Assembly: GCA_040954595.2 (NCBI GenBank)
Contig: CM082576.2
Location: forward strand, 9,055,129 to 9,119,128
Origin: Balanoglossus misakiensis
Lineage: Eukaryota; Animalia; Hemichordata
Length of the DNA stretch: 64,000 nucleotides
Reading direction: 5' to 3'
The notes beneath the pieces are model-generated. The model did no database searches. It was given only the letters and a program-made list of their open reading frames with translations, and had not been told where the DNA came from. Position 1 is the first letter of the stretch, and every line of letters begins with the position of its first letter. This document shows, in pieces, positions 19,584 to 64,000 of the stretch. Both the position numbers and the translations under genes were made by a program.

Positions 19584-19650
<67 letters not shown>

Positions 19651-28452: not shown

Positions 28453-29071
28453 TGTCATTATTTCATTCTACCGTGCAACAATGATATTTGTACAAAATAC
28501 CGGTATATTTTCAAATAGAAGAAACCAGCTATGTTCTCCACAACACACAATTGACGCACCTGCACACGAAAATGTTATCAAGGCAAAATCTTTTATTTAT
28601 AAGTACATCACAGTGATTATTTGATTAAAAAATAACAAATAGTGACAAAATAACAACTAAGAGGCTTAAAAGTTTTAAAAAGACAAGTATATTTTTCGTA
28701 TATACAAATTGGTTCTCCTGCAAGTCAAGACGCCATGAGAAGTACATGTGTATATGTTACAAGGTCAAAACACAAAATGTTACATAAAATGGCATTTGGA
28801 TGACATGTATACAAGGGGTGTAAGATCACAGTAAAAGTCTGTCTGACCGATGATGCTTCAAGTGTCCTGTACATTGTAAGACTCTTCAGAAAAAAACCCA
28901 TCACATCCTCCCCACCTCTATAACTTGTATATTATCAAAAAGTCCATTGGTTTCTTCTACACCTGGCCTTTTTCCACTCGCCAGAGAATGGGGAAAGTTG
29001 GCAAAAAAGTCAACATTTTGCCATGCACTGATGCAATCATGCATTATTTTTTTCCGATGAAGTTTTTTTTC

Positions 29072-41000: not shown

Positions 41001-44000
41001 AGGTTGAACTTGTTAAAAGAGTCCATTCCTTACATGCTATTTTGTACAAATGTATTTCATTTTAACAACACTATACAATACAGACTGTTTATCCATTTCC
41101 AAATTTAACTTTCTGTGAATTTATTACACCTCACGTATTATACCATATTCGTGATTGGCTGAGACGCGCTCACGTGATATAGAAAAAAAAGTGATATAAC
41201 ATGGCTAGAGTTGATAAAGCCCTGTCGCGTGCGCTGATATTGCCCGCTGGGTTGTTTTGTGTTCTGCGCGCGACTTCTGCGCGTTCCAAACTGTCGTTCA
41301 ATGGCTTCCTCCACGATCAGTCAACTCCCGCATCTATGGCTTCAAAGCGACACATAGGCTTAACACCTGTTCAACTGGACGATATTTTACCACAAACGGA
41401 CAGTAAATACAACAAAATCGCAACCAACAGTGCAGTATTTTCAAAATAATCTAAGTTCGAAGTAGGTATCGTATAATTCTTGGGAGATCGAGAAATTTTA
41501 CATTCTCAGCAACGTACGACATATGGACGCGCGTCTACGTTCTTCTATGCCTGCCTTGTATGTACGTTCAAATGTTCGGCGTAATAAAATTAATAACACA
41601 TGATGCTCGGGCAACATCACGATTTGAAGCCTGCCCTCGGGCTGGTGATCTCTGACCACAATATTGATGATACCCTCGCCTGCGGCTCGGGCATCATCAA
41701 TATTGTAGTCAGAGATCACCATCCCTCGTGCAGGCTTCAAATCGTGATATTGCCCTCGCTATCATGTGTTATTATTTAAATATTGTTGGTTAGTGCACCC
41801 GTGTTAAAAAGTGATCTTGCCTCTTTTGATGTGAAATCACCATCCTCTTCCTCATAGTTGCTGGTTGGTACATAACTGAAATGAGAAAAAATACAATATT
41901 ACACAAATCAAATGAACAAAAATCTGCCATGAGTTGTGATGACAATCCCACAATGCACTGATTGGTTTGAGATAGTATACAGCACTTTACAGAAATGATG
42001 TAACAGTTGATTTCAAGAGAAAGAAAATGCCAGTTGTTGCCAGCCTTACCTGTCTGGGATGTAGACAGCACCACCTTGGGCATTGCCAGGAACACACCAT
42101 TTCTTCTGCCGGGTCGGAAGGTCTTTATCCGTGCCTGCTTTAATGACTCCATTGGTCGCCACCACCGTTGTTTCTTTCTGTGTCAGAAAATAAACAGCAA
42201 AACTTTACCGTGTTGTCTGTAGTGATACAGATCTGTGTAGTATTAAAATTGTACTTTTTTGGAATGAGAACATTTTAAATGACTGCAGTCAGAGAAAAAA
42301 AGAGTGTGAACGCATTCTGACGAAATAAAAAGATGCTTATAACAAGAGCACACCCTGACAAGTAACCTGAACATGTACACACACACAAACTGTACCTTGG
42401 GGGTACATTTTCTATCTCCGAAAAAACTCAGGTACAAAAATATCTGCGATTGCCACAAAAAATCCAACTTTACCTCAGCTGTTATTGGAACTGGCAGTGT
42501 CACATTATAAATGAACGGCGCACCGGTTGGGTTCCAGACTTCTGGCACGGAGTAGACAGATTCGACCGTCACTGTCAGGAGATTGACATCCTTGAGTACT
42601 TCTTCCGTCAACAGCGGTTCAGTCACTGAGACCACCACGTCAAGCTCAACCTGGAAATAAGCGGCAAAGCGTACGCCATCATCATCAAAATCAAGAGTTT
42701 GCGCTAGCGGAGTTTATTGACTTGCTATTTATGAACCGAACTGACTGTAATAAAACACTCATGCAGGAATCTATGCCAGTATTCTAGATATAATAATTGA
42801 TTAACACAATAAAGCGAGATCTGTCTAGAACCAGATCATGACTAAACTGGACACCTGCCCATAATGAAGACGTTTCATATGGGACATTCAGGAACCTGCT
42901 GTATCTTGGTCCCTTGATTGGCATCCAGTTTAGATCTGCAGGTCTAACTGGACCTTTCTAGTATGGGTACCATCGTAATAATAATATTACTAGTAACATC
43001 ACTCAGGTGTGTGTTACTGATCATTGCACTCATGGCTGCCTCTTGCTAAATATCCTGATGTGAGTCTGTTTACAGACTACACATTTTTACTATGCGATAT
43101 CTCATACATCATGTACCTCACACAAGAATTCATCAGCTGGATGTGCAGAGAAATATGACCGTATTTCAATTTTATCCTTGGTGAATACTCTCATGCGGGA
43201 TTGTCGATCAATGGGATGGAGAAGAACCAACCATGAAATAGAATGTAACAATGCAGACAGTACCCATGCATTGGAAAGGTCTTAGCTTTGTGTTAATAGT
43301 GTTATGTATGTCCCATACTAGCGGGATCTAACATACCTTACCAATGAAATTGGTTATGGTCTTTATATAGACCATATTAATTAATGATTGAAATTGTCTG
43401 TTCTGTAAAGTTAGTAAGTAACCACAGATATAGTGGACCCATTATACTTTGTACCAATGTAATTTTGCACAGAATAAAACGTACATTTAGCTGGTACAAT
43501 TGTATAAGAAAACACAGTAAAAGTCCATGTAATAAATGGGTCTACTAGTCTGCGGTCTAACCAAACTTTGCAAGGCATGCTACTTGTATTATCATGTCAA
43601 TTATTTACCTAGAGGGGGGTAGAAGGAACGAACATGCTATTATCTGTGTTAAAACCCTTTCACAATCACCACGGTTTAGTCCATTCCTATTGTTTCCAAT
43701 GGTGAGGACAGACCGTTGCATTTGGAGAAGGGAGTGAAAGAGTCATGGTATTAATGTTGGCAAGCATTTGTTTCATGCGGTATTACAAAATATGGATGCA
43801 AGTCAATCGACTTAGGATGCTTTGAATGAAACTCATGCAGTGTGTTAAAATCATTCTACTATGAAAATGCAATGAAATTATCGAATGGTTGGATAACTCG
43901 GAAAAAAATATGTATCGGTCTCCAGATTTAAAGGGGTAAAGCTGCCACTTCATGAGTGTTGTTTGGTTGCTTTTGTTTCAAACAAAATCACCAAACTACT

Positions 44001-46197
44001 GTCAGAAAATGGTGACTTTGCCCCCCTTATTAACACATAGATACATTTGTACCATAGCAGGGTGGGCTATGTGGGGAGAAAGGTAATAGGCAAAAAAACT
44101 GCAACTATGCTGCAGGATACGGCACTGTGCAATAGCTGGCTTGTAAGTATTTGTACTGTTGTCTGAAATTCTAGTCTTTGTTTTTACCTGAAACGTTATG
44201 GAGGGCTGTCAGAAGTTGGAAAATAAAGTAGAGAGGAAGTGTTAGTGGTCCATCACACTTCTGATGCACAATAAAATGCTCTCAGAGCACTGACATCAAG
44301 TTCAAGCTCAAAGATGTCACATATGACCTCAACATTCAAAATGGATCATGAAAAACATGACTTAATTTTCCTTTTTTGGATAATTCACAAAATCACTGTA
44401 ACTGCCACTTCTAATCCTGAATGAATCAAGAAAAATCTAAAGTAGTGGTTTTGATGTTTGTCTTGTCTAGTATATTCTAGCACAGGTACATGCATAATCA
44501 TGTACTGCAGGACTGGCTATCAGTTTCAGGTGACAGACACGATACAATTCCAATAAGTTGTCTGAGAGATTTCAGAAACAGGACTTCTAATGGTAATTTT
44601 GGTGATGCAGAGTCTCTGTTTTGCTAGAAATACAAAGAATGGTGATTACAGGAAAAAAAACAGATACAGAGCAACTTTAACATTATTTGAAGTTTCATTT
44701 TAAGACATGAACCTGATCATGCAACCACTGGTGAGATGTCTGGTTGCAAGTGGATTTCCTTTTAAAGCCCTGATCAAATTATCAGTTATGTGACTAAGAC
44801 GATTTAACAATTATAGTGTGTTTTTCTTTACTTCTGTAATTGCAGGCACTTGCAAGACCTCAGATTTGTATTTTTCACACATGAGATCAGTAATGAATTG
44901 TTAAGAATTTTGCCCACAAAAAAGCTACAACATGCAATGTAGGTGTGGCATACCAGCTTCCATGGAAAACCAAAGCAAAAATACTTTGAAAAAGACCGTT
45001 CAATATTTACCTTCGCCTGATCAGGTGGTGCTGTCTCCAGTGGTGACCCAGGTAGTGGATGCACCACCAAAGTACATTTGTATTTATTTTCTCCCTTGAG
45101 CAGAGGGAGAAGATCCACGGTACTCTGACCCAACAGCAGTGTCTTTTCCTCCTTCTGTTTCTTTTCCTTTGGGAGCACTTCAATGACGGTCACTGAAAAT
45201 TGAGGATCGGAATCCAAGGGTAGAACGTTAGGAAGACTTGCAATTGTAATAGTAAGCAAAAGACATGACAAATTGTTGCATACTTTTTAAATTACCAGTA
45301 CCGGTACTGTCAAAATGTGTTATTGCTTAGCTGTATATTTTCAATGTTTGCCTACCAAGCATAAGTCTGGATTTGAAATTGCTGGCCATAAAAAAACTTT
45401 GTCAGTGTACACATAGACAGTAGAAGGGAGATATCCTCCTGCTTTCTATGGTACGCAGAATCATAATTCTACTGAAAAATATATTTCAAAACCTTGTTGG
45501 CTATTTTGCTAAACTCTACAGCCTAAACCTACAATGGTGTACTTTGACAGCAACAGCTGGCCATTGCATGGCATCTGCTCATGTACATGTACATATTATG
45601 CTTACCCATGACAGGCTTGTAAGCGATCTCGTCCAGAGTGATGGGATCATCAAAGGTGCACTCCAATCTCGCATTGTAATTGTATTCAGTTGGGACATCT
45701 GCAGTCGACTCCACTTTTGGAGATTCACCCAAACTTTGATTGTTGTACTCCACGCGAACGAGTGAGTTAAGGTTATCACCTTTGGATCCCCTCTACAAAA
45801 TAATTACAAAAAGTTAATATTATTAGCAAAAGGGGAATGGGATGATATTTTAGTAGTTCTAAATGTAATGCTAACTTGAGTCTTATTCCAAAACTGAATA
45901 TTTGTTTGCTGATGAGGTACGAAACCATGAGCTTGCCAATATTTGAAACCACACAAGGTGTTTTGCATGGCAGTGATGGGGACATCAGTCATCAGATGCT
46001 CATAAAGCATCCCTGTACAAACTGTCGTAGTGGGAACTATCCACAATGCATCCATGACCCCCCCCCCCCCCCACAGAACAATTGGGCAGTCCCTAAGTAG
46101 TAAAATGAGCGTGACTTACCAAATTCCTAGCTCTCATCACAGTGATGTTGATATATTCAGGTGGCCTAACCTTAGGCCCTTCATCTTCCGATGCCAT
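29072..46197 (-). CDS. CFAP70: Cilia- and flagella-associated protein 70 (TTC18; N-terminal C2-like region, C-terminal TPR repeats), ~25 coding exons
   Basis: Start exon 46120-46197 ([26 protein letters not shown]); 45606-45792 (LGESPK...LDEIAYKPV); 45011-45192 ([16 protein letters not shown]...VDLLPLLKG); 42474-42650; 42050-42177; 41821-41875; 40893-40987 ([11 protein letters not shown]); ~40544-40634 (RVWPVEIMR); ~39583-39653 ([16 protein letters not shown]); further exons include [15 protein letters not shown] and [12 protein letters not shown]; TPR exons ([16 protein letters not shown]; [19 protein letters not shown]) ending VGFGDPQF* at 29072. These motifs match CFAP70 as I recall it. 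Confidence 0.93.
41121..41774. mobile_element. Non-autonomous Crypton-like element with a long terminal hairpin, in a CFAP70 intron
   Basis: TTATTA direct repeats at both ends (41121-41126, 41769-41774); ~184 bp near-perfect palindrome at 41591-41774 with CTCG/CTCG mismatch bubbles and a CTCGCCTGCGGCTCG apex; GC-richer than the flanks. Family assignment is inferred. Confidence 0.55.
43407..43570. mobile_element. Degenerate MITE-like inverted-repeat element
   Basis: Imperfect inverted ends AAAGTTAGTAAGTAACCACAGATATAGTGGACCCATT / AATGGGTCTACTAGTCTGCGGTCTAACCAAACTTT. Confidence 0.4.
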
Positions 46198-46569
46198 TGC
46201 TCAGGTCTGCAGCAAATCAGACAAGGTTGTGTGTTTTTTTACGTCTATGATTGAATGTATTGATTAGCATTGCACAGTCGGTTGTGTGATCGATGCCTTC
46301 GGAAAATCGCTTATGATTAATTCGACCGAACTTTAACACATACGACATAAATGTGCAAATATGTTGGTAAAATTAACGGATAACTGCAATCACCACCACA
46401 TTTTAAAGGTAAACAACATGCTGTGTACAAATCATCAAAAGCTACCGAGTTGCCTTTGACTTGGTGGCATTTGATCGAGCGCGTCGGGCGCAATGTTTTA
46501 TTTTCAGGAGCTCGAAAAAATGTATATTGGCGATAAATGACTTTGTCGTTCACATTTCTTGAACAGAAA

Positions 46570-46888
46570 ACCTACCTATTTCTGGAAACCCTTCCTATTC
46601 CAACAAATATCCGCTATTCACAACGTTAGGACCTGTCTCCAGTATCAACAACCCCGGTCGCTACAAGTTGCCATAGAAATGTACATTGACGCATGCGCTA
46701 TGACCTGATTTCACCCAACCCGGAAGTACATCAATATAAACGTGAGTCAGTACGGTGTGCTGTCTGTTTCAGCAAATTTTTAGTGTTTGTTCATATTTAA
46801 CACCCGCCATTCTCGCCAAACTGTATTGCACGGTAGAGCAGAATCATTTGGCCGTTTTATTTAAATTCTACCACTTACAGAAAGAAAG
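46570..46888. promoter_or_regulatory. Bidirectional promoter of CFAP70 and DTD1
   Basis: Divergent ATGs ~690 bp apart (46197 minus, 46889 plus); CFAP70 non-coding first-exon donor near 46575; RFX X-box-like GTTGCCATAGAAAT at 46667-46680, NRF1-like GACGCATGCGCT at 46688-46699, ETS CCGGAAGT at 46720-46727. Confidence 0.75.
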
Positions 46889-49376
46889 ATGAAGGCCATA
46901 GTTCAACGAGTAATGAAAGCAAGTGTGACAGGTAGGTCATTCAATGTCATTGCCCCTCCCCCCAGTTAATCAGTGTGTTTTAATATGCCTAACAACGTCA
47001 CTTTTAAAAATGGACAGAATACATATGGAATTTGGATGCAGCTTTATTTCATATTCAGTATTCCTGTCACTGTCACACATGGACCAGATGGCTAGGATAG
47101 TGCAATTTTACAGATATGCATACTGTAAGATTTTGAAGTTAATCAGCTAGGCCATATTACCATGGCACAGTTATTGTGTCAAAATTACTTGCTTGTCAAT
47201 ACTGCAGTCACTGCTACATTTTCCATACTGAGCTTTGACTGTATAGTAATTCCACCCTCATTGTATGTGTTAATTCCTTCAGTTGGAGATGAGCTCATAA
47301 GTTCCATAGGTCGGGGATTGTGTGTGCTGGTTGGTATCTCCGTAACTGACACACAGAAAGAAATTGAATTCATGTAAGTACAGCCAATATCTCTGGTACA
47401 TATTATTCAGTTTTAAATGCAGAGACCAAATCAAACAGAATCTCTGCTTTTTCTTCAAACATTTGATTAGTGACGTTAGAGGTATGTGGATGCACATAGC
47501 TTTAACTCTTACATGTGCACTGAATTTCCAAAAAAATAAGAATTTAATATACAGTTGCTTGTTCAGCAACTTTTTTTGTGTGGTTTTGCTCTTCAGGGTT
47601 AGAAAAATATTAAATCTGAGGATATTTGAAGATGAGAACCAGAAGAGATGGATGAAGAGTGTTAAAGATAAAAATTATGAAATATTATGTGTGAGCCAGG
47701 TAAGACAGCACATCAGTTTTGTCAGCCTTTTCAGCATACAATAGACTAACTCAGTAGTTGTTTCTCATTTTTAATGGTAGTAAATTCGAGGATTTATCTC
47801 TCATGTTGTATACTGACTAACACACACCTGTGCCTGTCAGCCAGTTCAGACATGACTACTGAACAAAAGGACAAATTATCACAATACCTGTCCATAGAGG
47901 GCGCGCACACTACCTATCTGTTGGCTGACATGATATGCAGTGATGATTGCCTACCTGGCTACCAGAACTTTACCAAGATTGACTCTTGATTCAAGCTGCA
48001 AAGAAATAAACCTTGTAATGGGAGCAAAGAAAAACAAGCTCTGTTCGTCTCGTCTCCAATCATCAAAAGTTCTTTATTTACCTATTTTTCAGTGACGCAC
48101 AAGTCACAATATTCAAGGTAACACATTGTAATACTTTGTACAGAGAATAAAACATATCCTATGTGAAGGCCACTACAGCTCAAGGTGTCTGAGTATTATT
48201 ATTGTACTTCTGGCTGTATCTCCAGATCTAAAAAGCGTAATTTGATGCACTTGCATTAAAATCATTGTGAAAAATTTCAGTGTTTCACCTTGAACTGTAC
48301 AGGCATTCGCACAGGCCTTTGTATTCTCCAAACAGAAAATGTTATCCCAAAGGTAATTTGTGCGTCAACAAAATCTCGGTAAATAGAGATCTATTGACAT
48401 TTTTTAGAGACTTTTCAAATAAACTTGTACATTTAGTTAGGTGGACACTCTTCAGAAGACGCTTTCTAAAAATGGCATCCAGGGCATTCTAATGGTTGCA
48501 TTATTACCTCCTTATTTTCACGAGTAAAGATCTAAAGAATACTTTCACTTTTACTCCCCAAACTTTTCTTCCTATCTGTCTTTCTTCCCAACCACACCGT
48601 TTACACTATGCAGTACTTTGAAAGGAAACAAACCAGATTACCATTTAGCGATGGGTGGCGACGAATCCCAGGCATTCTATGAACAGTTCATGGCGGCACT
48701 GAAAAAGGAATACAAACCTGACCTTATAAAAGGTAATCACTACATTGCTAATTGTGCACACACACGCATTCCACATGAGAAATATTTTATTTGTTGAAAA
48801 TCGGCACCTGAGATGAAATCCATATCTGCCTTTTTTGAAAACTTTCATAGATACCCATCATTCTCCAGCGACCAGGTAAATATATTTTTACAGACTTCCT
48901 ATTTACATGACATTTTCTTGCAATGACTCACAGGCATGTCTGTTGCACTCCTAGAATAATTCAATAAAACATCCAGGGAAGTAGCTCAAACATACCAAAT
49001 TTCTGAGAATTTAGTATAATACTAGTAAAACTGTCTCAGTGTAATGGCCTCACAGGTGCCCCTCCTGTCCTAACACTGCCCTCTAGAGGACACATTTTAT
49101 TACCCAGCTACATTGTATAAGATGTGATATATGGAGGCTGCTCAGCCAGTTCACGTCTCATGCTTCCACTCATTTCACCAAGCCAACATCACAGGATACT
49201 ATAAATTAAACTGAGTAGACATTCCAGACTGCACTTTATGAATTTTTCATTTTTTTTTTCAAATACCAGATGGCAAATTTGGAGCATATATGCAAGTTCA
49301 TATTCATAACGATGGACCTGTCACCATTCAATTAGACAGTCCCGTTCGGAAACAGACTACAGAAAAACAAAAAAAT
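46889..49376 (+). CDS. DTD1: D-aminoacyl-tRNA deacylase 1 (core exons; 3' end unresolved)
   Basis: Exons 46889-46931 (MKAIVQRVMKASVT), 47283-47373 (VGDELISSIGRGLCVLVGIS), 47597-47699 (VRKILNLRIFEDE...LCVSQ), 48600-48732 (FTLCSTLKGNKPDYHLAM), 49270-49376 (DGKFGAYMQVHIHNDGPVTIQLDSP). SQFTL and NDGPVT (Gly-cisPro) signature motifs are present. Confidence 0.96.
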
Positions 49377-50583
49377 GTAAGTATCTAATGTTTTAATTGA
49401 AGTAATAAAGTAAGATGGTCTCAGTCTTTCATCTTATCTGGACTTTAAATGTTGTGTTTGAATCTTGGTATAACTGATTTTTAAAACCAAGTTCCATGGA
49501 TGTCTGATTGATGAGAGATGGTTCAAATGACAGTTATATTTGACATATTTTTTGATCTTCAGAAATCTGGTAATTTTATTCTTTAATTGCATTAAACAAA
49601 TTGATGATTCAAATGTTCATTTATAGAGGAGGTGTGAAGTACCAGCCTGACCCACTCCGTGTTTAACATCTGATAGAATAATAATAATTGTTGTAGGTGA
49701 AGATACAAAGTGCAGGCTGTCTTGTAACCCCTGCCATTAAATGTGATAGCTCTGGAACAAATTACTACCTTGGGGAGTGATTATTGATAATAGTACGTGT
49801 ATACAAGCATCATAAATTTTGACATATTAAAGTATGGTTTTCTGAATTGATGTATATACATGCATAATTCAAATTGTTGTCATTTTTGAAAACAAGACTG
49901 TTCGGGTCGTTGGAAAATAATCTCAACGATTTCTTTAAATCTGGGCAGTCATCTTCCACTATTGCCTTCTGCAGTAAACAGTTCTGTAAAACAAATGTAG
50001 ACAGACATCGGGGTTAAAAAGTCACAGCAATGAAAGCCCTGCTTTTTTATGAGAACAAGCACAATCTTGCCCCCGCTGACCTGCGCAATATGTTGTGTAT
50101 TGTCCGTAACTGATTACAGCTGACAAGACTGCCCTCTGGAGCCCATTTATATACAGATGTGTAGAGCTTTCGCAGTCTTACCCTTTTCAAGATCGTATCG
50201 CCAAATGAGAGCTCCTTCAGCACGCTATATGTCATTCACCCGTCGTTTGCGTAATTCATTTGGATGCACATTTTCTCCTTTAGTTAAATTCTCGAAAAGT
50301 CTGTGTCAAGTAGGGCGCATCAGAGGATAATGTCGGAAAGCTGATGTTGTCTTCTCTGCCGCTCGGCCCATTTTCTCCCTTTTTGACTCAGGTGTGGTAC
50401 AGCCCTGTGAGAGTTATTGCCTGTCAGTTGCCATCGGCTCAGACCAGGCCCTTGAAAAAGCGTTCGCTGTTTTGCTTTCGGGGCAAACTATGCGTTATTC
50501 CACACTTGGGAAAACACCGGTAGAATTGGAGTGTTTTACTCCAGAGGCCGCGTGGAATTCCACTGCACCTGATCTTGAAAGTT

Positions 50584-50633
50584 TCCAAAATTGATGGCTT
50601 TGATGAGACTGTCCAAAATTGATGGCTTTGATG
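50584..50633. repeat. 28-bp-period direct repeat containing CTTTGATG
   Basis: TCCAAAATTGATGGCTTTGATG at 50584-50605 and again at 50612-50633. Confidence 0.85.
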
Positions 50634-53600
50634 GGTCTTCTTTGGGATCTCTTATCCATGATAACATAACATAACAGTAACATCTAAATCTCGTCCCTGG
50701 ATTATACTTACCGCTCTTGGTCTTAGTCAAGCCAGTCGTAATTGTTACAAGTCTGCCATTGGTTGTGCTTACAATAGCACTTCTTGCAAACCTAAGGCTC
50801 AGACTGTGGTAAATGCATGTATTTTGATCCCTTAGATTTTACCATTATTTTCTACGTTTTTTTTTTAATTCTCAATGTTTTTTTTACAGAAAATATGTTA
50901 ACATTTTCAAAAGTGGGGGAGACCAGACAGATGTGTAGTAATTCTTAGCAATGACACCAAAAACTGTCACAAAAAACATCAGTCTTTCCCAAAGTGCAGT
51001 AGGAATTGTATTTTGAAAATTTGATTTCTCTTTTGATCACCACATCTCATTATATTTGATGGTTCTTTCATATACCAATGGCGGTGTAATTAAATCTGGG
51101 CGCCCATGGTCAACATAATTTCATCATTTTTTTCTGGCACACAAGGCTCCCCCTTGAATGCAGTAATGAACTTGATATTTTTTTTTATAATAATGGTGTA
51201 ATTCAACTGTCGTCAGCATGCTCTCACTACGGTGCCAATAATGAACCCCGGTGAAATTCAATCAAATTCTAAAATTAGTTTGATGTGGTGGCAGTTAGCG
51301 CTATTGATCTCGGCGAGATAGACCGGCAGCTCTCTGTGCGCTTTCATTAGAACATATTAACAGAGCTTTCTGTGGTTTCTTAATTGGATGGGGAAATAGA
51401 ATTGTCCGGTGCAAAGAGCTCAAATTCCAGACTTGTGTAAACCATCCAGTGTTCAATAATTGGCTCGACTCAAAAAAGAACACAGAGAGTGGGAATATTA
51501 TCATTCTCTGAACCCAGTCAGAATCGGAAGTTTTGATTGAAATTTTCACCTTTGAAAAAAGTGACTTTCAAAGAGCTGTAATGGACAGACATGCTATTTA
51601 TTGTTCCACATCTTTTATGCATTATGATCAACCGATGTAGGCATTAAAGTTATTACCGGAAGATAAAAGTTGTCCACCATTTCTGCGGACTGATGACTAG
51701 ATTATTTTGAATTTTATTTCCCACGATGAATGATATTTGACTACATTACAGTTTTACGGCTGTGTATTTTATCATCTTAAAATTCGTTTAGAATTAGTAC
51801 CAAAATCTTTCTGAGGATTCTAAGCCTAAGCTGGCACATTCTCCCGGCAAACCTCGCCCTTTGGAAGTCAAGGGTCAACAGTTCAGATCTCACTCAGAAA
51901 ATGACATGCCACAAATGTGTACTGGCAATTTCTGCAGTATCAACTTTGACAGAAACAATCAAAAGTCCAGATAAAAGCCTTTTTAGCCATTCCCGCGAGT
52001 ATTTTTCTATACTTTCACTTTTTTTTTCAAATGGATTTTATCGGTAAAAGGTTATAACTTGGAATTTGTGACACCATGTGCAATTGCTTTGGCCATCATC
52101 AAAAGTTTGACTTGAGTCTGTCTCTGTTAGTTTCGATTCCTAGTTGTCAATCTACATGTATATGGTCTCTGTGTGGCAGTTGTATTTGACTCTTGAAAAA
52201 AACAGAATCAGTTGTTTTTTTGCGATTCTGTTTGGTTAACATCAATGAAAATCAATTATTTCCTAAAAAGAGGTGCCAGACTCGGACGTGTTGACGTCAC
52301 AGTAAATATGAATTTCGCGGAAACGGTTGTTTTCTTTCTCTGATTGAAGGCCATTCTACTTTGTTTGAACTCACCTGGCCATTATGCCAATTCAATCCTT
52401 TTATCAGTCACCTGGGCTTGCAAAAATGTACTTTTCTGATAATCCAGCCTTAAAACTGTGGGCTGGGCAAGATTGAAATTTTTGATGGCTTAAAACTTCC
52501 AAGGGTGCAATGATTAAATTCAACAGGAAAACTGAAAACAACAATAAGAGGATATCAGTGAAGCTGGTGTGATTTTCAGCATTTCACAGATTATAAATGA
52601 GTCGATACCTGCAGCAGATTTTGTTTGGCAGCATGTTAGAGTAACCCCCGCGATACCTTGACACGTCATTAGCAAGAAGATGAATATTGTGATTCGTGAT
52701 GTGTTTTTGTTTTTCTCCAACCATCATTGTGGGGGGGCTTTATCAGGGCTTCCTTTGGGGCTTTTGGTTAAATCCTACAAAGTTCCTGTGGACATGTGAT
52801 ACGAGATGTTTGGACTTGATGTTTGTTTCCCCCATGGGAGGGATTCCACCCCCCACTAAGGGTGACGTTTGCGATAGAACTGCGGAAACACACCTTGTTG
52901 TCACACACGTAACAGTTATTATAAAATGTTCCGTTGGTCTACTGATGGCAAAAACATGCGTGATCAAATTTTCTATACATCAGAATTGTAACGTTGTACA
53001 CTGATGCTGCTAGTACTTGTCAACATAGCCTTGGGGGGTTTGCTTCAAGGTAGAATACCCCTTTCATTTTACACTGATCTATACAAAATGGGAAGCGTGG
53101 GGGAAAAGGACAAAAAAATTCTCCCATTAGCACTTTATCACTCAAAGTTAGCCATATACTCAAGCCACAGGAGACAGAAAATCAGTTCGATGCATGTTGC
53201 CAGATTGCCTGGAAGAATTACATTCAATTTCTCATCAGCTTTCGTTTCTTTCGCCAGACGTGAAAAGCTTGTCTACTTGAACGGAACATAGCGAAACATA
53301 TTTTCATGGGAGTAGGTCGCCGAGAGGTCAAACCACTGTTTTCAACTTTCCATCAGTGCCCTTATTCAGCTTCCAGAAGTGAATGCAGAGAGAGTCATTA
53401 CTGTCAAAAATTGTTCCATCTCGCCAAGATTGCTGAAAATTCCTGTTGACTCGAGATTGGTGAAATCGTGTCTGATATAGTCCATCATACTGATTACCTG
53501 TGAAGACATTGCGCACAATGACAATCGGGTTGGTGGTTGTTATGATGAGAGTAAAGGCGCTTCTCAGATTGAAACGGTGGTCATGGCAACCATCCGGTAG

Positions 53601-56600
53601 GAAATTGTGTTGTTTTTTTCCTGTTACAAACGAGAGCCGTGCCGAGCGGTAAATTGTGCCTGGAAGATGTTGGTGACAACACGGTGAATGCGGTGACCTT
53701 GACATTGACCTATTATTTGCACGTATATCATTCAGTGGAATAACATCACTAAATGTAACAACCATTTCCAGTATTCTGAAATTTTCACGCTCCACTGTAC
53801 CCTTGGGTCCTGCCAAGATGCCAGGTGGAAAAATAGCAGCTTTCATAAAACTTGCAGTTTTAGATGAAAATGTGGATGAAAACAGGATGAGATTGTTAGA
53901 TGACTCTGTAGTAATGTAGAATCTCAGATTTCAGATTTTTGGAACCTAATAAACAGGGACAGTGGAAGAGAGTTTGTGGGTTTTTATAGCACAGCGAGGA
54001 CTGTTGGATTTTGTGAGTCTGTGACATATCGCACCAGCGTGTCTATACCAGTTACATTTATAGACATCTGCTGTGTAGAGTGAATGGTGCAGGGAGGCCT
54101 ATACAGTTGCAAATTTACTCTCAGAATGTGTGAATCAGTGAGAGCGCGCTGAAATTGCTCAATCACTCACTCATTCAGCATCGCACTGTAACTAATATTA
54201 AGTGGTGTAAGGTACTAGTGCGTGATTGTGATCTCCAGTGTGTCGGTAAATCTGTAGCAGCTTGCAAGGAAACATTTCCCGCCAGTTTAGTGGCACATCA
54301 TCCAAGACAAATTAGAATCCACTTGTGCGCATGCAGGCAGTGCCTTCGTTTATCAGGCAAGCTTTAAACAGCGTCTTCAAAGTACTCAATCTGGTTTTAC
54401 TCGCCTCGTTGTACAATATTGTAACCAAGCAACGGCTTCGGAGGATGATCACGTGACCTGCAGTGTTGAATGGTGAAAAGAAAAAAATACTGTCAGTGGA
54501 ATTATTCCTCAACATTGATGATTGATGCAAAGTGCACAATCATCTCGGTTTCGGTTGAACCTGAGATGTGAATAGCAATGGCCTTGTCGGTGAAGGAGCT
54601 GTTTGTATAGAAAGATTCATATACACAAACAGATGACACACAGACTTCTGTGACAGTGTGGTGTTTATTCACAATTTTTTTTTCTGTGTGACACATACAT
54701 GTACACGCCAGCATTCACTGCAAAATGTGTTTCGATATCACAGTGAGCTTGCGTGCAAGAGATGTAAACCACTCACTGCTGGTGCCAAAAGTACACCATT
54801 TATCTACTTATGCCATTTTAATAACCTATTACAGTGTTTTCAGTCCAAAAATAATAGAAATCGTCATGCAGTCTGAATGAGTGAAGCCATAAAAAAATTA
54901 CCATTACATTCATGTGATGGCTACACATTAGTTTAGACTGACTGGAGTTGTTCTGTGTACTCGGGAGAAATGAGATGGACACAATCATTTCCCAATAATC
55001 AGATTAGTCCCCTCGTTAATCCCCTTGTTAATCCACTTGTCTGAATGATGCTTAGGGCAGATTTATCCAATTATGAATCAATGATTGTGCTTCATAGCCA
55101 TTAGCTCCAAACAAAAAAATGAAAGATTTTAATCAATATAAAAGGGTCTGATGCCTGCTGCTTAATTAAGTACAAGTAACCCACTTGCCAGTCCATGTTT
55201 AGACTCTATTATCACTGGAATAACATAAACTGATTTATGACGTTTGTGTTTGCACAGTGGATTTTACATAAAGATTGTGATATCTTAGTGAAAGTGTAGT
55301 ACTCTTGTAGATAGGCAAAAAAGAGGGAGTGTGTGTGTTGGGTATAAGGAAAACAAGACAGCTGTATAATGATTGACGGATGAATCATGTGACACCAGAT
55401 CACCTGACCCTACTCCCTGACCCAGTCCACTGTTCTAATTTTATATAGCGCACTGCATATTATCGCAGTGTCTCAGTATGTCGAAGCAGCCGTCGCTCAC
55501 GGACATAGTACAAACCGTGACAGTTCCCCCCAAGACTCCCTAAGTCTGATTACTTTGCAAGCTGGTAGACCCCGAAGACCGAAGATTTTGTGATTAAATT
55601 GCCGTTGATCCTGAAGGTGTTCATGTCTATTTCCCCTCCCTGTAATGCTCTGTGGCATGTTTCTGTTGAGTGCCACACGAGTATGTAGTACGTTTTGATG
55701 TAGTCATCAGTGATGTGATCGTGTGATGTTAAAATTTTATCTGTGATTTTATTTGAAAACCCCACATCCTGGGAGAACAAACATTACCGGCACGATCGAT
55801 CGAAGCAAAAGGTCCTGCAGTCATCAGCTACTCATATTTGTTTTAATAGAAAAATATGGGAATATTTTGGCATGATGTTCAATACAGCATGTGACACCAA
55901 GTGACACAACACTAACTCCCTGTTGTGTGGCTGTCTGTGATATCCCTGGACCGCGGGTCCGCGCACTCTCCAGTGAAATATAATAATACCGCTGTATTGA
56001 CCAAACGTGGTTGATTGAAGCTAATGGGATTTGCAGGGAACAGGTTTCACAAATAGAAAATCATGGCAGTGTGTGATTAAGAATATTTTACTGAGATCAC
56101 TCGTAAGTCAAATTGTTTGATATCATAGGAGGGCGCTTAGATATAAGCAAGGCAAATATTTCTTCAAATAGGAAACCCTGGGTGTCATTCACGAACAAAT
56201 TGGAAGGCTGTGTCAAACATTACTTTTTGGGTGCCTTCAATATAGTTTTATAAGTACCTAATGGTATTGGTGATATTGACTGGGGGGTGGGGGTTATGTG
56301 GCAGTACAGTTGGATGATTGACTAACCAAACTAAAGCCATGGGCATCGGTGGCATTTGTTCCCCAAATACAGCACAATAATCTGCCTCCGTTTATTAGAT
56401 CTGATAAAGCCCTTTGAACGGTCGGTGACTCTCCCATTTGAAACGCTCTGTTAGAAGTAATTACTGTCCTGAGATGAGCAAGTCCTACGTGTGTAGTAGG
56501 GCATCTGTGCAGCTTGTAACTGACATATGCTGAAGGGGAACGTACTCTGAACCATTGATGAAGTTTTAGAAATCCAACAAGATCACTTGAAGGACATGTG

Positions 56601-59600
56601 ATTTGCGTGTTCGGTTTGCCGGTTACACTCCAGGGACGTAGAGTGCTCCTCCATTGAAGTAAATTGTGCAATAAGTCTTTGTAAAGTAACACTCTCATCA
56701 GTTGACTTTATATTCAACAGTAATGTGTGGGCAGTTGGTTTTTCTGTGGATTTTGTTTCCGTTCCGCTTTATTTTCGCTTCCCTTTAAATTTGTGTCAGT
56801 GAAATTTTACAAGGAGTCTTTATGCACTTTAATCAGTGCGTTGCCTGCCTGCTTGCATCCATCAACCTCCATTTTTTTTAAAAGACTTATTTTTTAGAAA
56901 ATTGCTTATCAGTCAGCCAGATAAGCCCGAACAAAGGAATTTTGAAATTCAGATATTTATTTACATCATGTGCGACCGGCCACGAAGCATTATCTCTTGT
57001 TTTTTTAAGAAACTGCTTTTATCATTCAGTCAGTCAGTTGGTTGGTCGGTCGTTGCACTGATAGACCGAGCGAACACGTGATTCTAGTCATGTAACCAAT
57101 TCAATCAGCAGACTATCATTTTAATGCTCCATAACTTAGTGCAATAAAAGGCTTGCCAGTGTGGCCTTTGTGTTCGCAAACAAAAGTGATATCTGCAAAT
57201 ACCTATGGACGGTTAGAACACAGTCTTTTTAAAGCCTTGAGCCAATTGTTTACATGGTATTTTTCTCAGTGCATGCACATTTTAAATAGCACTGCCTTTG
57301 TTCTTCGAATGAAGATAAAAATTTAATATGAGAACGATCAAATTTTATGAAATTTCATAAATGCAGGTCTGACCAATCGATAAAGCTGTAAAAAGATATT
57401 TATTACATTGGTGGCTGCCTGAAATAGTAAAAACCTTAGCCTTTTGTCATCCGAGATCAGAAATTTTATCTTTGTATCTTCCTATCTCAGTATGAGGTTT
57501 TATGAGACTGTGGTATATTGCGAAGTTAATATTTGTATGCTTGTTGCCTCGATGTAGACATCGGCTGGTAACAGAGAGAATTCTTTGAATTTTATGAATT
57601 GTTCAGTCATGTCAATGTGATCTGTTGAATCTTGATTCAAGCTGCATATTGGAAAATGTCCATATTTTCTTAGGTTTCTTCCTTCATAAATACCCTCTGT
57701 GTAATTGGAAGCATTTCAAAGGAACCGATAGAGTACTGACAGATCTGATGAACAGATGGCAAACAAAAAATGTGCTGTTAAAGCCTCAAAGAATTTATCG
57801 TGGACATAGGATTAAATCGTATCAATTTTGCTAACATCAGAATATGAAGGTACAGCAGGGAAAGATAAAACTTACATAAAAGTAAATATCACATTTGCAG
57901 TAAAAATAAATTAGTATTGGAAAGAAAAAAATCCTGATGCTTGAGTACTCAGGACGGAGTCGAACTTTGATATCAGACTGGTAATTTCAAGAAATTCTAT
58001 CATCTGCAGCTGTCTTCTGCAGTTGTTCAGTAAACCGTTCTATTCTCCCATGTGTGGAGAGAGGTTGCTCATCGCCGACCCCGAGGGCATGATCTTGAAA
58101 TTATTTTCAGAAAGATTAACCTCCTTGTTTCCCTCCGTTCGAGTCGTTGTGGAGGCCCCTTGGGAAACTCTCGGTTTTGTTCTGCTCACGCTAAGTATTT
58201 ATGGTGATTTTAAAAGGCCATAATATCACATTCCGTCACACGGCATTTTGAAGTAATGATCGAGCCAAGTTGTCACAGATTTGAAATTCAAAATGGCCGC
58301 CAAACTCTGTGGAGAAAATGTGACAAATTTCAGACTGTCAGCCATGGACTGTCTATTATTACTCCATGCTTAAATTTATCCTTCTATGTGCTGAGTCATG
58401 TGCTGTTTCTCTCTTTTCCCTTCTTTTCGTGCCATTTCACCAGGTGCCGCTTCGAACTTGAAATCTGTGTCTCCATCACCTCCATCTTGTGACCCACTCA
58501 AAAGTGACACATCATTTGCCCACCCGATCTTCACACCTGTTTATACACACACACGACACGCACACTCCTCCCGCTTGGTTTGCCAATTTTAACTAGGGTT
58601 CCCCAACGCCTTCAAGGTCATATATATATATAGGTCAGATGATGTATATGACATGAGCCGACATAAGTCCAATTATGCACATGTGTCTTCGATGGCCGCC
58701 AGGCAAATATTTCTGTCATGACAACAAAATTGGACAGGGAACAAGATGATCTGACGGCGCTAATCTTGTCGACATTATATCGGAAGTCAGTGTGCCACCT
58801 TGTAATCTGCTAACCAGTGGTCTGCAGCAACCAGACGCCGTGTTGACACAAAATAGTTGCAATCAAACTCCTTTTACAGATCCCATAAAATGGCCGAAGC
58901 AAAGGTGCCCAGTAGTTATATTAACGAGACCTAAATAAAAGGACTTCATGTTCATCCAGAGTGCATTTCAAGGAAATTCTTTTTTTTTCAATCTTTCTGG
59001 CGCAGTGTCAACTGGGGGTTCGAAGATTGATGTTGTGCTCATATCGGCGATGTCCTTTTATTGCGTTTTTGGATTGGGGTGAAAACTGACTGCGGGCTAA
59101 ATGCAAACAGAGCCATAAAATAGGCTGTCTAAAGTAGGCGTGTGTATGGAGCCTTGTTTTGTTGTGACATAAGATTGCAGATCAGCAGTTAAATGGGTAT
59201 TTGGAAATCTGGCCCATGTTTGATTCATGAAATATGAACGGCGCTGTTTAAAGTTGCACCAAGGTCGAACAAGGTCAGGAGTGTGTGCCAGTGAGAATGT
59301 AGACATGGGCTGATTTGATTGCAACTGTCACGTTTATAACTACTACTAAGAATTTGTTTTATGTTTCTTACCAAATCTAGCAACATACATGTAGTTTATA
59401 TTACCTTGAACCATACAATTGTTGTATTGTCCCATATTTTAGCTTAAATTCTTGTTGTTTTTTCAATGTGACGATTGTAATACACAGTCAAATTTAAACT
59501 CATTTGCCTGTGTTTGCAGACAAATCAATGTCGATGTTGTTGTTTTTAAGCAAGCAAAATTACACCAACTAATGCATACATCGCCTCAAGCTGAATGTCA

Positions 59601-60553
59601 CTTTGGATGTTATTGTGCATGAAAATGACTTGTAAAATCTGAATAAGGTACAAGATGATAGTCATTTTAATAGTCATACCTTGAGGCTATGCATCTATCA
59701 GGCAATATTTTGATGAGCGTGTAGTCAAATGAAATCAAAATAATCATGGAGACAAGACTGTAAAATATGTACTTTTTATTATTGCAACATTTTACATGAA
59801 CATTTATCGGGCTCAATCTGACCTGATTTGCAACACGCATACAAGACAAAGGCACTGATGCATTTTTAGAATAGACAGTCGTCTCTGCTTGACTGCTGTG
59901 TCGAAACTTCTAATTTAACCATCTGAATTTCAGATCTCCTGCAGAGAATTCTAAATGTTCTTCTGTACGAGGGAGGACATCACGGGTTGCAATGTCCTTT
60001 TTTAGCTGCAGTAGTGTTTTTTTGCACTGTGTGTAACTCTTGGTAACCAGGCACGCTTGCCAGCAATGATATTCAACTCAAATTTCCATCTTCTAATTTA
60101 TCTGTCGCTGTTTATTACGATGTGTGCAACGTTCGTCACGTTTTTTGTTATTTTTATACCACTGTGGTTTAAGAAATGAACTTGCCCAATGTTGGCTGTT
60201 CCCGTTCGATTTGATCAAAATCCATCCTTTTGTCATGTGCAGCCCACTTCAGGTTGTGGGCTTTGATGAACGTTACCATGGCAATGTGTGATTTTGATTT
60301 AGGTCAGGCAGTCAATATCGCTCGCACAGTTTGAGTTCTGACGAGAACATTCACTTCACATCCTCAAGGACACGGTGACCTCAAGAAAAGTGATTTCCGA
60401 CTGGATCCCATTTGGATTGCATACGCATAGTTTTGAACAGCAAGGGGGATATTACATCTGATTTCTGAATTTATTTACACACAAAACTATGCGATTTCCG
60501 TGCCTGCCTCCATGTCATAACAAATATTACAACCATGTTTGTTTTTATTTCAG

Positions 60554-60717
60554 CATCCCAATACGCCCATAGCCGTCGTGAAACCCGAAGCCAAGGAGAA
60601 GTCGGTCACTGCCGAGCGTTCCGTCAGCTTTATCGACAAAGTGAGGGCCAGCTTTTCGGAGCAGCCGGAATTCTATCAGCACTTTCTGGACGTCATGCGA
60701 GAAGTTAGCAACAGAAG
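60554..60717 (+). CDS. Internal coding exon encoding the first two helices of a Sin3-type PAH (paired amphipathic helix) domain; possibly part of DTD1
   Basis: Acceptor ttttatttcag| and donor AG|gtatgg; GC3-rich codons unlike the flanking DNA; translation HPNTPIAVVKPEAKEKSVTAERSVSFIDKVRASFSEQPEFYQHFLDVMREVSNR resembles Sin3 PAH1 (VEDALSYLDQVKxxFxxQPxVYNDFLDIMKEFKSQ). Confidence 0.75.
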
Positions 60718-63700
60718 GTATGGCACACAGGGTTCTGCTGTTGCATTTCTCATTTCCACTCCTTTCCTTCGAATATTTTTGCTGTCTCAATTGGGCTACT
60801 CATGTTTTAATTACAAGGCATTTAATTTCACTTTATTAGCATCATTAAGAAATAATCATAGCACACTTGACATGTGGGATAGGTGAGAGGTTGGAAGAAA
60901 CTTTTTATGTGGTGTGGCATAAAACTTACACATCCTCTCGAACACTCTGGGATGGACATCTCCACCAATAAACATATCTCCTATGATTGCCCTTGAGACA
61001 ATTATTTTAGTTAATTGAGCCAGCAAACAGCAGAGGAAGAGTTTGAAGTGTTTACTTAACAGCTATATTAAAAGCCTTGGAGTGTTGGGCGGTGTGTGTT
61101 TTTAGCAATTGACTCAGTTGGTAGTCCCTTTGGCTATGGTATTAATATTGTGTAGTTACTGGTGTAGTTGCTGAGACCTGAAAACGGAAGCCAAGGGAGA
61201 CACGTACAGAGAGAGAAAAATGGTAGATTGCTGTCCTCAACCTGACATCAGGAGGATTTAGTTTTTTTCTTACATCAGGCAGTTGTTAGTTGAACTGCAG
61301 AAAGAGAGAGAAACTATGTTGCGATATGGAAGCGATGAACATGATGAAAAGATCTTGGGTTTTCAGTTCAATTTTTACTAGCAAGCACTTTCCTAGAGCT
61401 TTTAGGTTTTACTTGAGAGAATTTCATCTGATGCAGTTCATCTTTTCTGTAGTGAATAAACCATAAAAGTCTCACATTCCTTTGCTGGACAAACATTCAA
61501 ATTGATACCCTAATCTTTGCCATTTTGAAAGTGATTTGATTTTAAATAAATGAGGTACACTTGTACAAGCAATCACTTTCAATGAGGAAACAGGGAATAG
61601 TTTGTCTCGGGTCGTTTGTCTTGCAATTGAGGTGAATTACACAGAACTTCCTGCGATCTGCATCAATTTTAGTACCAGACAAAACTCTTAATTGAAAAAC
61701 CTTGTTCAGTCCAATACAATTCAAATTTATGTCTCTTTGAACCATCCCCCATCATGCTAAATTTAGAAAGTGGCCAACACAAATTTAATTATCATTCCCC
61801 ACCCGTTTTGTGGTTCCCCATTGAGAGAAAAACACAGGATAATTGGTACTTGCAGATAAATGTGTGATATGGCATTGACACATTGCATGTACTGGTAATT
61901 ATTTTAAAAGCTTACAGAGGAACCTCAAGAATGTTTAGCGTTAATTCCCCTCAAGAACAATTTGTCCTCGCATTTTAGTTTTCTCAGTCAATGCCGTGCC
62001 AGAAATAGCTGAAATGGCAGAGCATTGAGTGAGCGGGGAGTTGTCGTAATGTCAAGATTGAGGAGAATCTGTGTTGTCATCTCAAAGTATGAGAGAGACC
62101 TACGATGACCTTCTCGGGGCATGCAAAACACGCGGCAAATAAGCCTTGTCATGTCTGCTGCAACATTCCATCTCTTGTTTTCATTTCGTGTGCGTTGCGC
62201 GTTCAGACTGCAATCAGGAGCCAGTCGGATCTCAGTGTTCTCTGTGTGTATCTGTATCAAGTCAGGTCAGCCTACATGTAGTTACGTATTTATAAAAATT
62301 GTAAAAATATCCCAAAGTTACAGCTAATGGAGCTTTCAAGTCATATCACCAAGTAATATCAGAGCTGCGCTGACTGTAATTTACCAGAAGTTCCTTGCTG
62401 ACACATGGTTGAATTTAGACCCGATCTTTTCACTTTTGAATTGATATTTCTATGCAGGAAGCCATCCAATTTACATACTGATCAACTAATTTTAAAATTT
62501 GCTATTTATATCTTGAAAGCATCTGTCTCAAAAGCCAAATTTATCATAACTCTACATTTCAATAAATTCAATTACATTTTATATTTTGGTCTGACACTGA
62601 AAGCTATTTATAAGACCATCAACATATTAATTATTTTCATGGTCTTAGTTACATTGTGTGTTTATGAAAATGCAAGATTTTTTATAATTGCACTGTAGGT
62701 TATTGACCTTTGATGAATGCAGACAGTATGTACGCACACAAAATTTATAGTCCTCAAATTGTTATTCCATCATGGAATTATCGCTGATTCTGCTGTGGCC
62801 ATCTTGTCCCACACAAAACCCTTGCACAGTTTCACTATGGCTGTTGATCACAGCAAAGAACTTGCTGCATTGTCAAAAATAGGCTCTGTGTCTTTCTCCC
62901 TAATAACAATTTCTTGCTGTAATTTTGTGGCAGTCAAAAACCAAAATTTGATGATCTCGCAGCAGTTAATGGGGAGAAAAGTTGTTAGAGGGTCTGCTTA
63001 ATCAGTCTTCAAAGCAAGTTGCATCAGATCAGAAGCACACAATACAATCCAGGGTTGCAGAAAATCTTAATCCAGTGCTAATACATATCGCATCTAACGC
63101 ATGAAAACGTGAATGCTGTCCTAATCACAGTTTCACATCTCATCTGCACTCGGTGACAATATATCACAACAGCCTTACAAATGTATCTTACACTGGGATA
63201 AGTTCTCCGCACACTATTTTCTAGTCTTTCAATACCTCAATAAACTCAGCAATACAACATTTATATAAATCCATTCATGCAGCCATTCAGGCAGAAATCC
63301 CCTCACATTCTATATGCTTCCATATTTGACATTTATAATACTGTAAAAATGCCGACTCCTAATCAACATAGACGTACGGTTGCTATGCACCTTTTCTCCA
63401 CGTACACTTGGATAGGCGAGCGCACCAGGCATTGCTTTGAGCTGTCGTTTGGCATATTCATTCTACACAGAAATTATCACCACAGTTACCATGGATATTG
63501 GAGATCAATAGCCAAGGCACAGATTATTACTCGGGTGGGCATTCCATTGGGACATTGTGTAATTTACAAATATGGTAGCGTATTGTACAATAGAACTTCA
63601 TGGGTTACGGCAGAAGGTCTATAAAAATATAAGTCACTAGTGTGTGTATAAGCAGTCTGTTTGGCTGTTATTTAGAGGTGTTCTGAAATCAGCTTCTTCA

Positions 63701-64000
63701 AATTTGTTGATACAGAAGCGAAGTTGCTACTTGGACAATTGGAATGTACGGTACAATGACTGGTACATCCATTGATTTTGTGGTGAGATCAAATATGGCT
63801 GACTTTAACATATGTATTCGTTTTTGGAGACACATATTTCTCAACAATGTCATCTGCAAGAGCTGGTATATCTTTTGTAGTATCGCAATATATGGAGGCT
63901 AAAAAGTTGTTATTGTACATCTAGTGTCCTTACTTAAAAATGGCAATGTGTAGGTCCAGTTGTTGTTTTCAAATTTATTCCATCGGATTAGATATAAATA

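Follow-up and report, generated by a model that had tools for sequence, protein, structure and literature searches.

A predicted D-aminoacyl-tRNA deacylase carrying a single Sin3 PAH1-type domain in Balanoglossus misakiensis and other hemichordates and echinoderms

We analyzed a 64,000-nucleotide stretch of the hemichordate Balanoglossus misakiensis (GenBank assembly GCA_040954595.2, contig CM082576.2, positions 9,055,129 to 9,119,128 of the forward strand; hereafter the window, in whose coordinates all positions are given), in which the gene for the D-aminoacyl-tRNA deacylase DTD1 runs in frame into an exon for a PAH domain, the helix-docking module of Sin3 proteins. The fused DTD1-PAH gene is almost certainly real, and we regard its product as an ancient, lineage-restricted variant of DTD1, the function of which is predicted below from its sequence.

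Gene structure and distribution of the fusion

Six putative coding exons were assigned on the plus strand: exon 1 (46889..46931; 43 nt, starting with ATG and ending in phase 1 at a GT donor), exon 2 (47283..47373; 91 nt), exon 3 (47597..47699; 103 nt, with the SQFTL motif interrupted at its 3' end), exon 4 (48600..48732; 133 nt), exon 5 (49270..49376; 107 nt, containing the NDGPVT (Gly-cisPro) motif) and exon 6 (60554..60717; 164 nt, phase 0 to phase 2). Exons 2, 3, 5 and 6 have AG acceptors and GT donors, and the acceptor of exon 4 is CG. Exons 1 and 2 were located by tblastn with P0002 (XP_070577280, Ptychodera flava DTD1 isoform X1, 341 aa), exon 1 being identical at 13 of 14 residues, and exons 4 and 5 matched Pfam Tyr_Deacylase (E 1.4e-7 and 2.6e-6; 32.4 and 28.3 bits against a cut-off of 25 bits, which P0002 passes with 186.9). 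Intron 5 (49377..60553; 11,177 nt) is in phase 0 on both sides. Exon 6 encodes a linker, the heptapeptide PIAVVKP (60566..60586), which matches the Siah/Sina binding consensus PxAxVxP, and helices 1 and 2 of a PAH domain of the Sin3 PAH1 type by profile match (60611..60717). Joined, the six exons (46889-60717) give 213 codons in a single stop-free frame. The phase-0 donor at 49376, with its AG acceptor and the cumulative phase in agreement, the phase-0 exon at 60554-60717 and the in-frame join between them had been put forward in a preliminary description of this DNA, and all three stood.

The same join was found in P. flava. The window exons align with P0002 without gaps (146 of 159 and 43 of 54 residues identical, tblastn); residue 159 closes the exon-5 match and residue 160 opens the exon-6 match. 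When the 54 codons of exon 6 were searched among longer proteins, one of six candidates matched; it comes from P. flava, combines Tyr_Deacylase with PAH and is 80% identical over the full query length. Fused DTD1 plus PAH models are present in RefSeq and GenBank for at least 12 named species, three hemichordates (Ptychodera, Glandiceps and Saccoglossus) and nine echinoderms (Anneissia, Antedon, two Asterias, Acanthaster, Patiria, Amphiura, Apostichopus and Holothuria); no sea urchin is named among the fused matches listed. The P. flava protein search gave 556 matches, of which the best 120 were examined, with cluster look-ups for naming the species. The DTD proteins compared are thus the top of a ranked list and no survey, and tunicates, arthropods and xenacoelomorphs were seen neither with nor without the domain. 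Of the 122 DTD proteins compared, 13 carry PAH by a profile that was itself built from 11 of those 13; Pfam PAH, independent of that profile, matched 11 of 11 fused proteins at E<=0.5 (best 8e-14). The 109 proteins lacking PAH are mostly from vertebrates, together with amphioxus, corals, a nemertean and a chiton.

Three of the models differ from the rest, probably as annotation variants: P0008 (Asterias rubens) lacks the terminal helix, unlike A. amurensis, probably by intron read-through; P0001 is a P. flava isoform beginning at residue 45; and P0124 is an Apostichopus model omitting part of the PAH domain.

Entire, uninterrupted fused open reading frames of 318-329 aa were also found on Logan contigs of 1.7-1.8 kb, one such protein (P0011) clustering with the echinoderms. 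Since the gene spans more than 14 kb in the window, contigs of that length are best read as spliced mRNA. Two 48-aa starfish fragments stop at the residue aligned to the split codon at the end of exon 6, which fits a common intron position.

It was also considered whether the models could be annotation artefacts, or whether DTD1 could end by intronic polyadenylation with exon 6 in a separate mini-PAH gene. The 11 kb intron and the in-frame stop and AATAAA right behind exon 5 would suit such an arrangement. However, the join is the same to the residue in P. flava and recurs in the named species above, the whole frame lies on short Logan contigs, and exon 6 has no start codon ahead of the PAH and begins at a phase-0 acceptor, so we consider this explanation very improbable. 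The profiles for Sin3 PAH1, PAH2 and PAH3 and for the fused PAH were scanned over the whole window in six frames, and exon 6 was the sole convincing match (E 8e-9 with the PAH1 profile; all remaining matches E >= 0.17). Therefore no PAH exon lies within intron 5, where the preliminary description had noted no ATG-bearing exon or Sin3 N-terminus, and helices 3 and 4, the hairpin and the terminal helix are predicted to be encoded past 64000. The exon might also have belonged to a full Sin3 gene or have been spliced from an upstream exon of its own; the Sin3_corepress (HDAC-interaction domain) and related Sin3 families matched 0 of 11 fused proteins, each of which has one PAH, and therefore the fused protein is not a Sin3.

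Two points tell against an intact fused gene in this individual assembly. The first is that the splice from 49376 to 60554 is itself predicted, from the window sequence and from the models of relatives; a search of sequencing runs with 46700-49700 listed no RNA dataset. The second is the exon-4 acceptor (48598-48600), which is CG and not AG in this assembly and comes after 60 nt of pyrimidine-rich sequence free of AG. On the upstream side the nearest in-frame AG meets TAA at once, and on the downstream side the nearest AG breaks the frame. The allele would be broken if the CG is real and unspliced. An assembly error, a variant allele and a rare GT-CG intron are the candidates; because the downstream exons are clean, we favor a base error or a recent variant over a dead gene. 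The acceptor pattern was unmatched in metagenome scans.

The deacylase half looks intact as far as its active-site motifs allow prediction. All 12 fused proteins compared have both SQFTL and NDGPVT; in the window NDGPVT lies in exon 5 and SQ|FTL is split across exons 3 and 4. The SQFTL and NxGP(V/F)T motifs are reported to define the cross-subunit active site of DTD (PMC3845328). The catalytic domain of DTD1/DUE-B (Pfam PF02580; PDB 2okv) has the same motifs and the same fold, and the P0002 model matched human 2okv by Foldseek with E 1e-19, a template modelling score of 0.91 by target and 74% identity. The likeness ends behind this domain. Vertebrate DTD1 (for example P0017) has a charged C-terminal tail of about 60 residues that the fused proteins do not have, and DTD1 of amphioxus, coral, nemertean and chiton has short unstructured tails; a PAH was found in 0 of the 109 non-fused proteins listed. 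The earlier suggestion that the PAH replaces the vertebrate tail is weak, as that tail is reported to be vertebrate-only (10.1101/2025.06.17.658125).

Origin and fold of the PAH domain

The PAH domain is very probably derived from PAH1 of Sin3, and is likely best read as PAH1 together with its beta-hairpin, judging from profile comparison. The window carries helices 1 and 2 only, and this 54-aa half domain alone was unmatched in Pfam at E<=1; P0002 scores 41.4 bits against the Pfam PAH cut-off of 21.3 bits. A profile of 11 fused tails matched Sin3 PAH1 from position 17 to 101, a span that takes in the beta-hairpin, and PAH2 over 15-83 only; when long multi-PAH proteins were compared with it, the first PAH was the best in 86 of 89. 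With PAH1, PAH2 and PAH3 profiles derived from 64 Sin3-like proteins, PAH1 was top-scoring for 11 of 12 fused domains, the hemichordate domains reaching 80-86 bits against 58-59 and 36-37 bits for the other two. The best single-domain matches that carry names (4 of 10) are animal Sin3 proteins.

Structure prediction for the tail gave four helices (18-31, 36-50, 56-66 and 71-80), two strands and a fifth helix, with a predicted local distance difference test (pLDDT) value of 80. Its top Foldseek matches are Sin3-family PAH structures; Sin3 PAH chains were also at the top with VIA-align, but at Z 8-9.6, a range reached by chance among helical bundles. The ESM Atlas returned generic PAH clusters only for the tail (scores <0.9) and no usable feature match for the whole fused protein, and metagenome scans with the PAH profile gave no confirmed relative. 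The Sin3 PAH1 fold (Pfam PF02671; PDB 2rmr, 2czy and 8i02) is likewise a four-helix bundle followed by a beta-hairpin, and human PAH1 is reported to end in a C-terminal beta-sheet (PMC13068551). In contrast to Sin3, the fused protein has a single PAH, with no PAH2 or PAH3 and no HDAC-interaction domain. It has one more helix behind the hairpin and, at its end, another that is conserved, and its cleft has diverged, most of all in echinoderms. The intron position in the fused PAH is presumably shared with PAH1 of human SIN3A.

The derivation from PAH1 by a single event is opposed by part of the phylogenetic evidence. Echinoderm PAHs score barely higher with PAH1 than with PAH2. In the PAH tree (73 of 199 domains, 69 columns) the hemichordate domains are sister to PAH1 (SH-like approximate likelihood-ratio test 85) and the echinoderm domains are not placed, and in the best trees the fused PAHs and the fused DTDs each require two changes and give no single origin, amphioxus and chiton being nested within the fused DTDs in the DTD tree. 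Monophyly was not rejected by the approximately unbiased test (p 0.81 for PAH and 0.18 for the DTD half). The argument for one origin comes from the linker motif, the fifth helix and the terminal helix, which are common to the fused proteins, and not from the trees; the domain would likely have arisen as a duplicate of Sin3 PAH1 in the ancestor that hemichordates and echinoderms share.

Linker motif, cleft and possible function

The most conserved non-catalytic segment of the fused proteins is a seven-residue motif (residues 163-169) just ahead of the PAH. Identity between hemichordates and echinoderms is 94% there, compared with 73% for DTD, 25% for the PAH core and 32% for the terminal helix. 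P, A and V are invariant at alternate positions, and the motif lies about 15-20 residues ahead of the PAH in all fused proteins, in an unfolded context (pLDDT <50 in both AlphaFold models). PxAxVxP is reported as the binding consensus of the Siah ubiquitin ligases (PMC13368847, PMC5646344); the full form is present in the window and in three of three hemichordates. The same spacing in an unfolded linker is seen in the Siah/Sina binders SIP/CACYBP, AIRE and AFF4, and ORF45 is a binder with a partial motif; the likeness of fused DTD1 to them is known from sequence, with Gly or Ala for the last Pro in echinoderms. A peptide containing PVAVVAG, which has no final Pro and resembles the motif of echinoderms, is reported to have bound SIAH1 in a spot assay, with the motif Val mattering most (PMC12258915). 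Among 159 non-DTD proteins (161,907 residues) 12 full matches were counted, which corresponds to about 0.2% per 30 residues. The peptide encoded by the opening 22 codons of exon 6 matched nothing among PDB sequences at E<=10. The motif is not a general feature of Sin3 and was probably not inherited from it: among the 25 compared proteins that carry the Sin3 PAH1 start motif, Px[ARTE]xV occurs within 45 residues before PAH1 in one, at another spacing, and mammalian SIN3A presumably has a pattern like it. No Siah motif in a deacylase was reported in the literature searched.

Weighing these data, we lean toward Siah binding the motif, and think that the cleft probably still binds a helix, both from sequence comparison. 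Our preferred explanation, held by a modest balance of probability, is a deacylase dimer with a tail composed of a Siah-binding motif and a helix-docking domain derived from PAH1. The DTD half would dimerize and strip D-amino acids from tRNA as other DTD1s do, and the dimer would therefore display two tails. The PxAxVxP strand would sit in the groove by which Siah, a dimeric E3 ligase, binds its substrates, making the abundance of DTD1 a regulated quantity, and the PAH cleft would take up an amphipathic helix, either that of a partner or the conserved terminal helix of the fused protein. In the simplest reading, Siah controls the turnover of DTD1 and the PAH docks a helix.

Several observations pull the other way. 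As for the motif, it was spotted after the fact; the final Pro is gone in all full-length echinoderm proteins (PxAxVx[G/A]), and a P-to-E change at the last position is reported to have impaired SIAH1-mediated degradation of AIRE (PMC13368847). The full PxAxVxP also occurs in 20 of the 109 non-fused DTD1s listed, all birds by name and at a non-homologous site, so that the motif can arise in such linkers. As for the cleft, identity to PAH1 of fish Sin3a is 40-48% in hemichordates and only 28-33% in echinoderms, and the equivalent of L127 is polar in most echinoderms. By a numbering that we take to be correct, as we do for part of the other cleft sites, the equivalents of A126 and K155 are both Ser in the window. 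Over the 35 positions that the window contains, its PAH is 37% identical to fish Sin3a, and the hemichordate cleft retains most of its hydrophobic positions. Human PAH1 variants at A126 and K155 are reported to weaken ligand binding (PMC13068551).

In the birds (P0062, P0066, P0109 and others) PxAxVxP directly follows the catalytic domain and may be a chance occurrence or a convergent Siah site.

The short distance between the motif and a ligand-binding domain in every fused protein would also suit an adaptor, in which the DTD1 dimer is a scaffold that brings Siah to helix proteins caught by the PAH, and these targets, not DTD1, are degraded. With its two Siah-binding strands and two PAH1 clefts, the ambulacrarian dimer would then resemble Phyllopod, the Sina adaptor reported to bring Sina to Tramtrack, in handing helix-bearing repressors or partners to Siah, which is dimeric and uses adaptors (PMC5646344). 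The retained hydrophobic positions of the hemichordate cleft and its identity to Sin3a PAH1 fit this scheme, and Sin3a is listed in fly screens among the factors synergizing with Sina; the strong divergence of the echinoderm cleft does not fit, nor does the absence of a K-K/R-x-K/R nuclear signal pattern past residue 150 in 11 of 12 proteins (by a crude regular expression). We hold the adaptor scheme to be unlikely.

The helix that fills the cleft may instead be the protein's own. Each of the 12 fused proteins compared has a terminal amphipathic helix, with a hydrophobic moment of 0.43-0.60 and, in six of them, an LxxL; this helix is better conserved than its flanks. In a self-contained appendage of this kind, the terminal helix would fill the PAH cleft and the motif strand would join the hairpin or the DTD sheet, so as to tune stability or location, with no binding of Siah or of Sin3 ligands. 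A sheet could take up the hydrophobic V-A-V-V strand, and the divergence of the cleft would fit co-evolution with a private ligand. However, neither AlphaFold model shows the motif as a strand, and invariant P, A and V around a variable site (Arg in Patiria) are the pattern of Siah binders and not of a plain strand; we find this version doubtful. A complex prediction for the PAH region and the terminal helix of P0002, made without alignments, scored 0.14 against a mark of 0.34.

A role at chromatin had been the lead of the preliminary description, which pointed to a nuclear replication-origin function of DUE-B. The PAH would tether DTD1 to chromatin or compete with Sin3 for PAH1 ligands of the REST, Tet1 and SAP25 types, and proofreading would be coupled to transcriptional repression or to replication origins. 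The domain is of the PAH1 type, and PAH1 is reported to bind such helices (PMC6168491). Against this, the fused proteins have no HDAC-interaction domain, the cleft carries substitutions, and the Siah-type motif would be left unexplained; furthermore, the DUE-B lead is weak, as replication in zebrafish and in Xenopus extract is reported not to require DUE-B, and the DUE-B tail to be confined to vertebrates (10.1101/2025.06.17.658125). We judge a chromatin role to be quite improbable, and retain the deacylase dimer with a Siah-binding, helix-docking tail.

Other features of the window and meaning of the fusion

Intron 5 may also provide a second end to the transcript. Reading through the exon-5 donor meets a stop codon at 49386-49388, as had been noted before, and an AATAAA (49404-49409) lies 16 nt past it, followed some 40 nt later by GT-rich sequence; an AATAAA within the next 40 nt is true of 2.7% of positions in the locus. 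A short catalytic-only isoform produced by read-through or intronic polyadenylation (49377..49409, plus strand) is thus a possible candidate. An alternative last exon resembling the tails of other animals was rejected, with no substantial plus-strand match; macaque and shark tails of non-fused DTD1 gave no convincing tblastn match in 49377-64000. The stretch at 58.3-58.9 kb, considered as an own promoter or exon for the PAH exon, contains no coding or PAH-like sequence. From 58444 (plus strand) there is a strong-looking pyrimidine-rich acceptor that gives, in phase 0, five codons and then a stop, with AATAAA at 58934; it may open an alternative last exon or be a chance site, eight such sites having passed an acceptor scan of intron 5 that missed the true exon-6 acceptor. 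No Rfam family was found in 46000-64000, where the repeats are short and unremarkable.

Other exons lie on the minus strand. A multi-exon gene at about 28800-46300 is divergent from DTD1, with a short common upstream region at 46.3-46.9 kb; the exons tried were unmatched in Pfam, and we take the gene to be CFAP70-like. Transglutaminase exons (Pfam Transglut_N and Transglut_C) are at 2800-6100, and exons of an extracellular protein with uromodulin-like D8C, VWD and EGF matches, presumably VWDE-like, are at 12900-21100.

Public Pfam annotation already shows the DTD1-PAH architecture, in models that are unnamed or named as DTD, and no description of it was found in the open literature searched (subscription papers lay outside this scope). 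By term search, deacylase did not occur in a review of alpha-alpha-hubs (PMC7948954), and Tyr_Deacylase went unmentioned in the text and 12 of 16 supplements (13-16 lying outside the search) of a study of domain combinations in which Saccoglossus and a sea urchin are covered (PMC3499355). A supplement of the latter study reports a 2-hydroxyacid dehydrogenase~PAH combination in Agaricus and Coprinopsis. This fungal case is also a lineage-restricted pairing of an enzyme with PAH, but it is a whole Sin3 with an enzyme domain, whereas DTD1-PAH has one PAH on an otherwise normal enzyme and is kept across two phyla. Two Coprinopsis Sin3 proteins in our data (P0123 and P0126) are annotated with 2-hydroxyacid dehydrogenase domains.

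That a single PAH1 has been retained on a proofreading enzyme in hemichordates and in four or more classes of echinoderms implies selection for some function, one that is undescribed in the literature searched and for which the Siah-type motif is a new lead. The adaptor scheme, if true, would link translation quality control to regulated protein degradation. The fusion itself would be a shared derived marker for Ambulacraria and, as a rare genomic change, could be brought to bear on the Xenambulacraria question by scoring it in Xenacoelomorpha (Xenoturbella and acoels).

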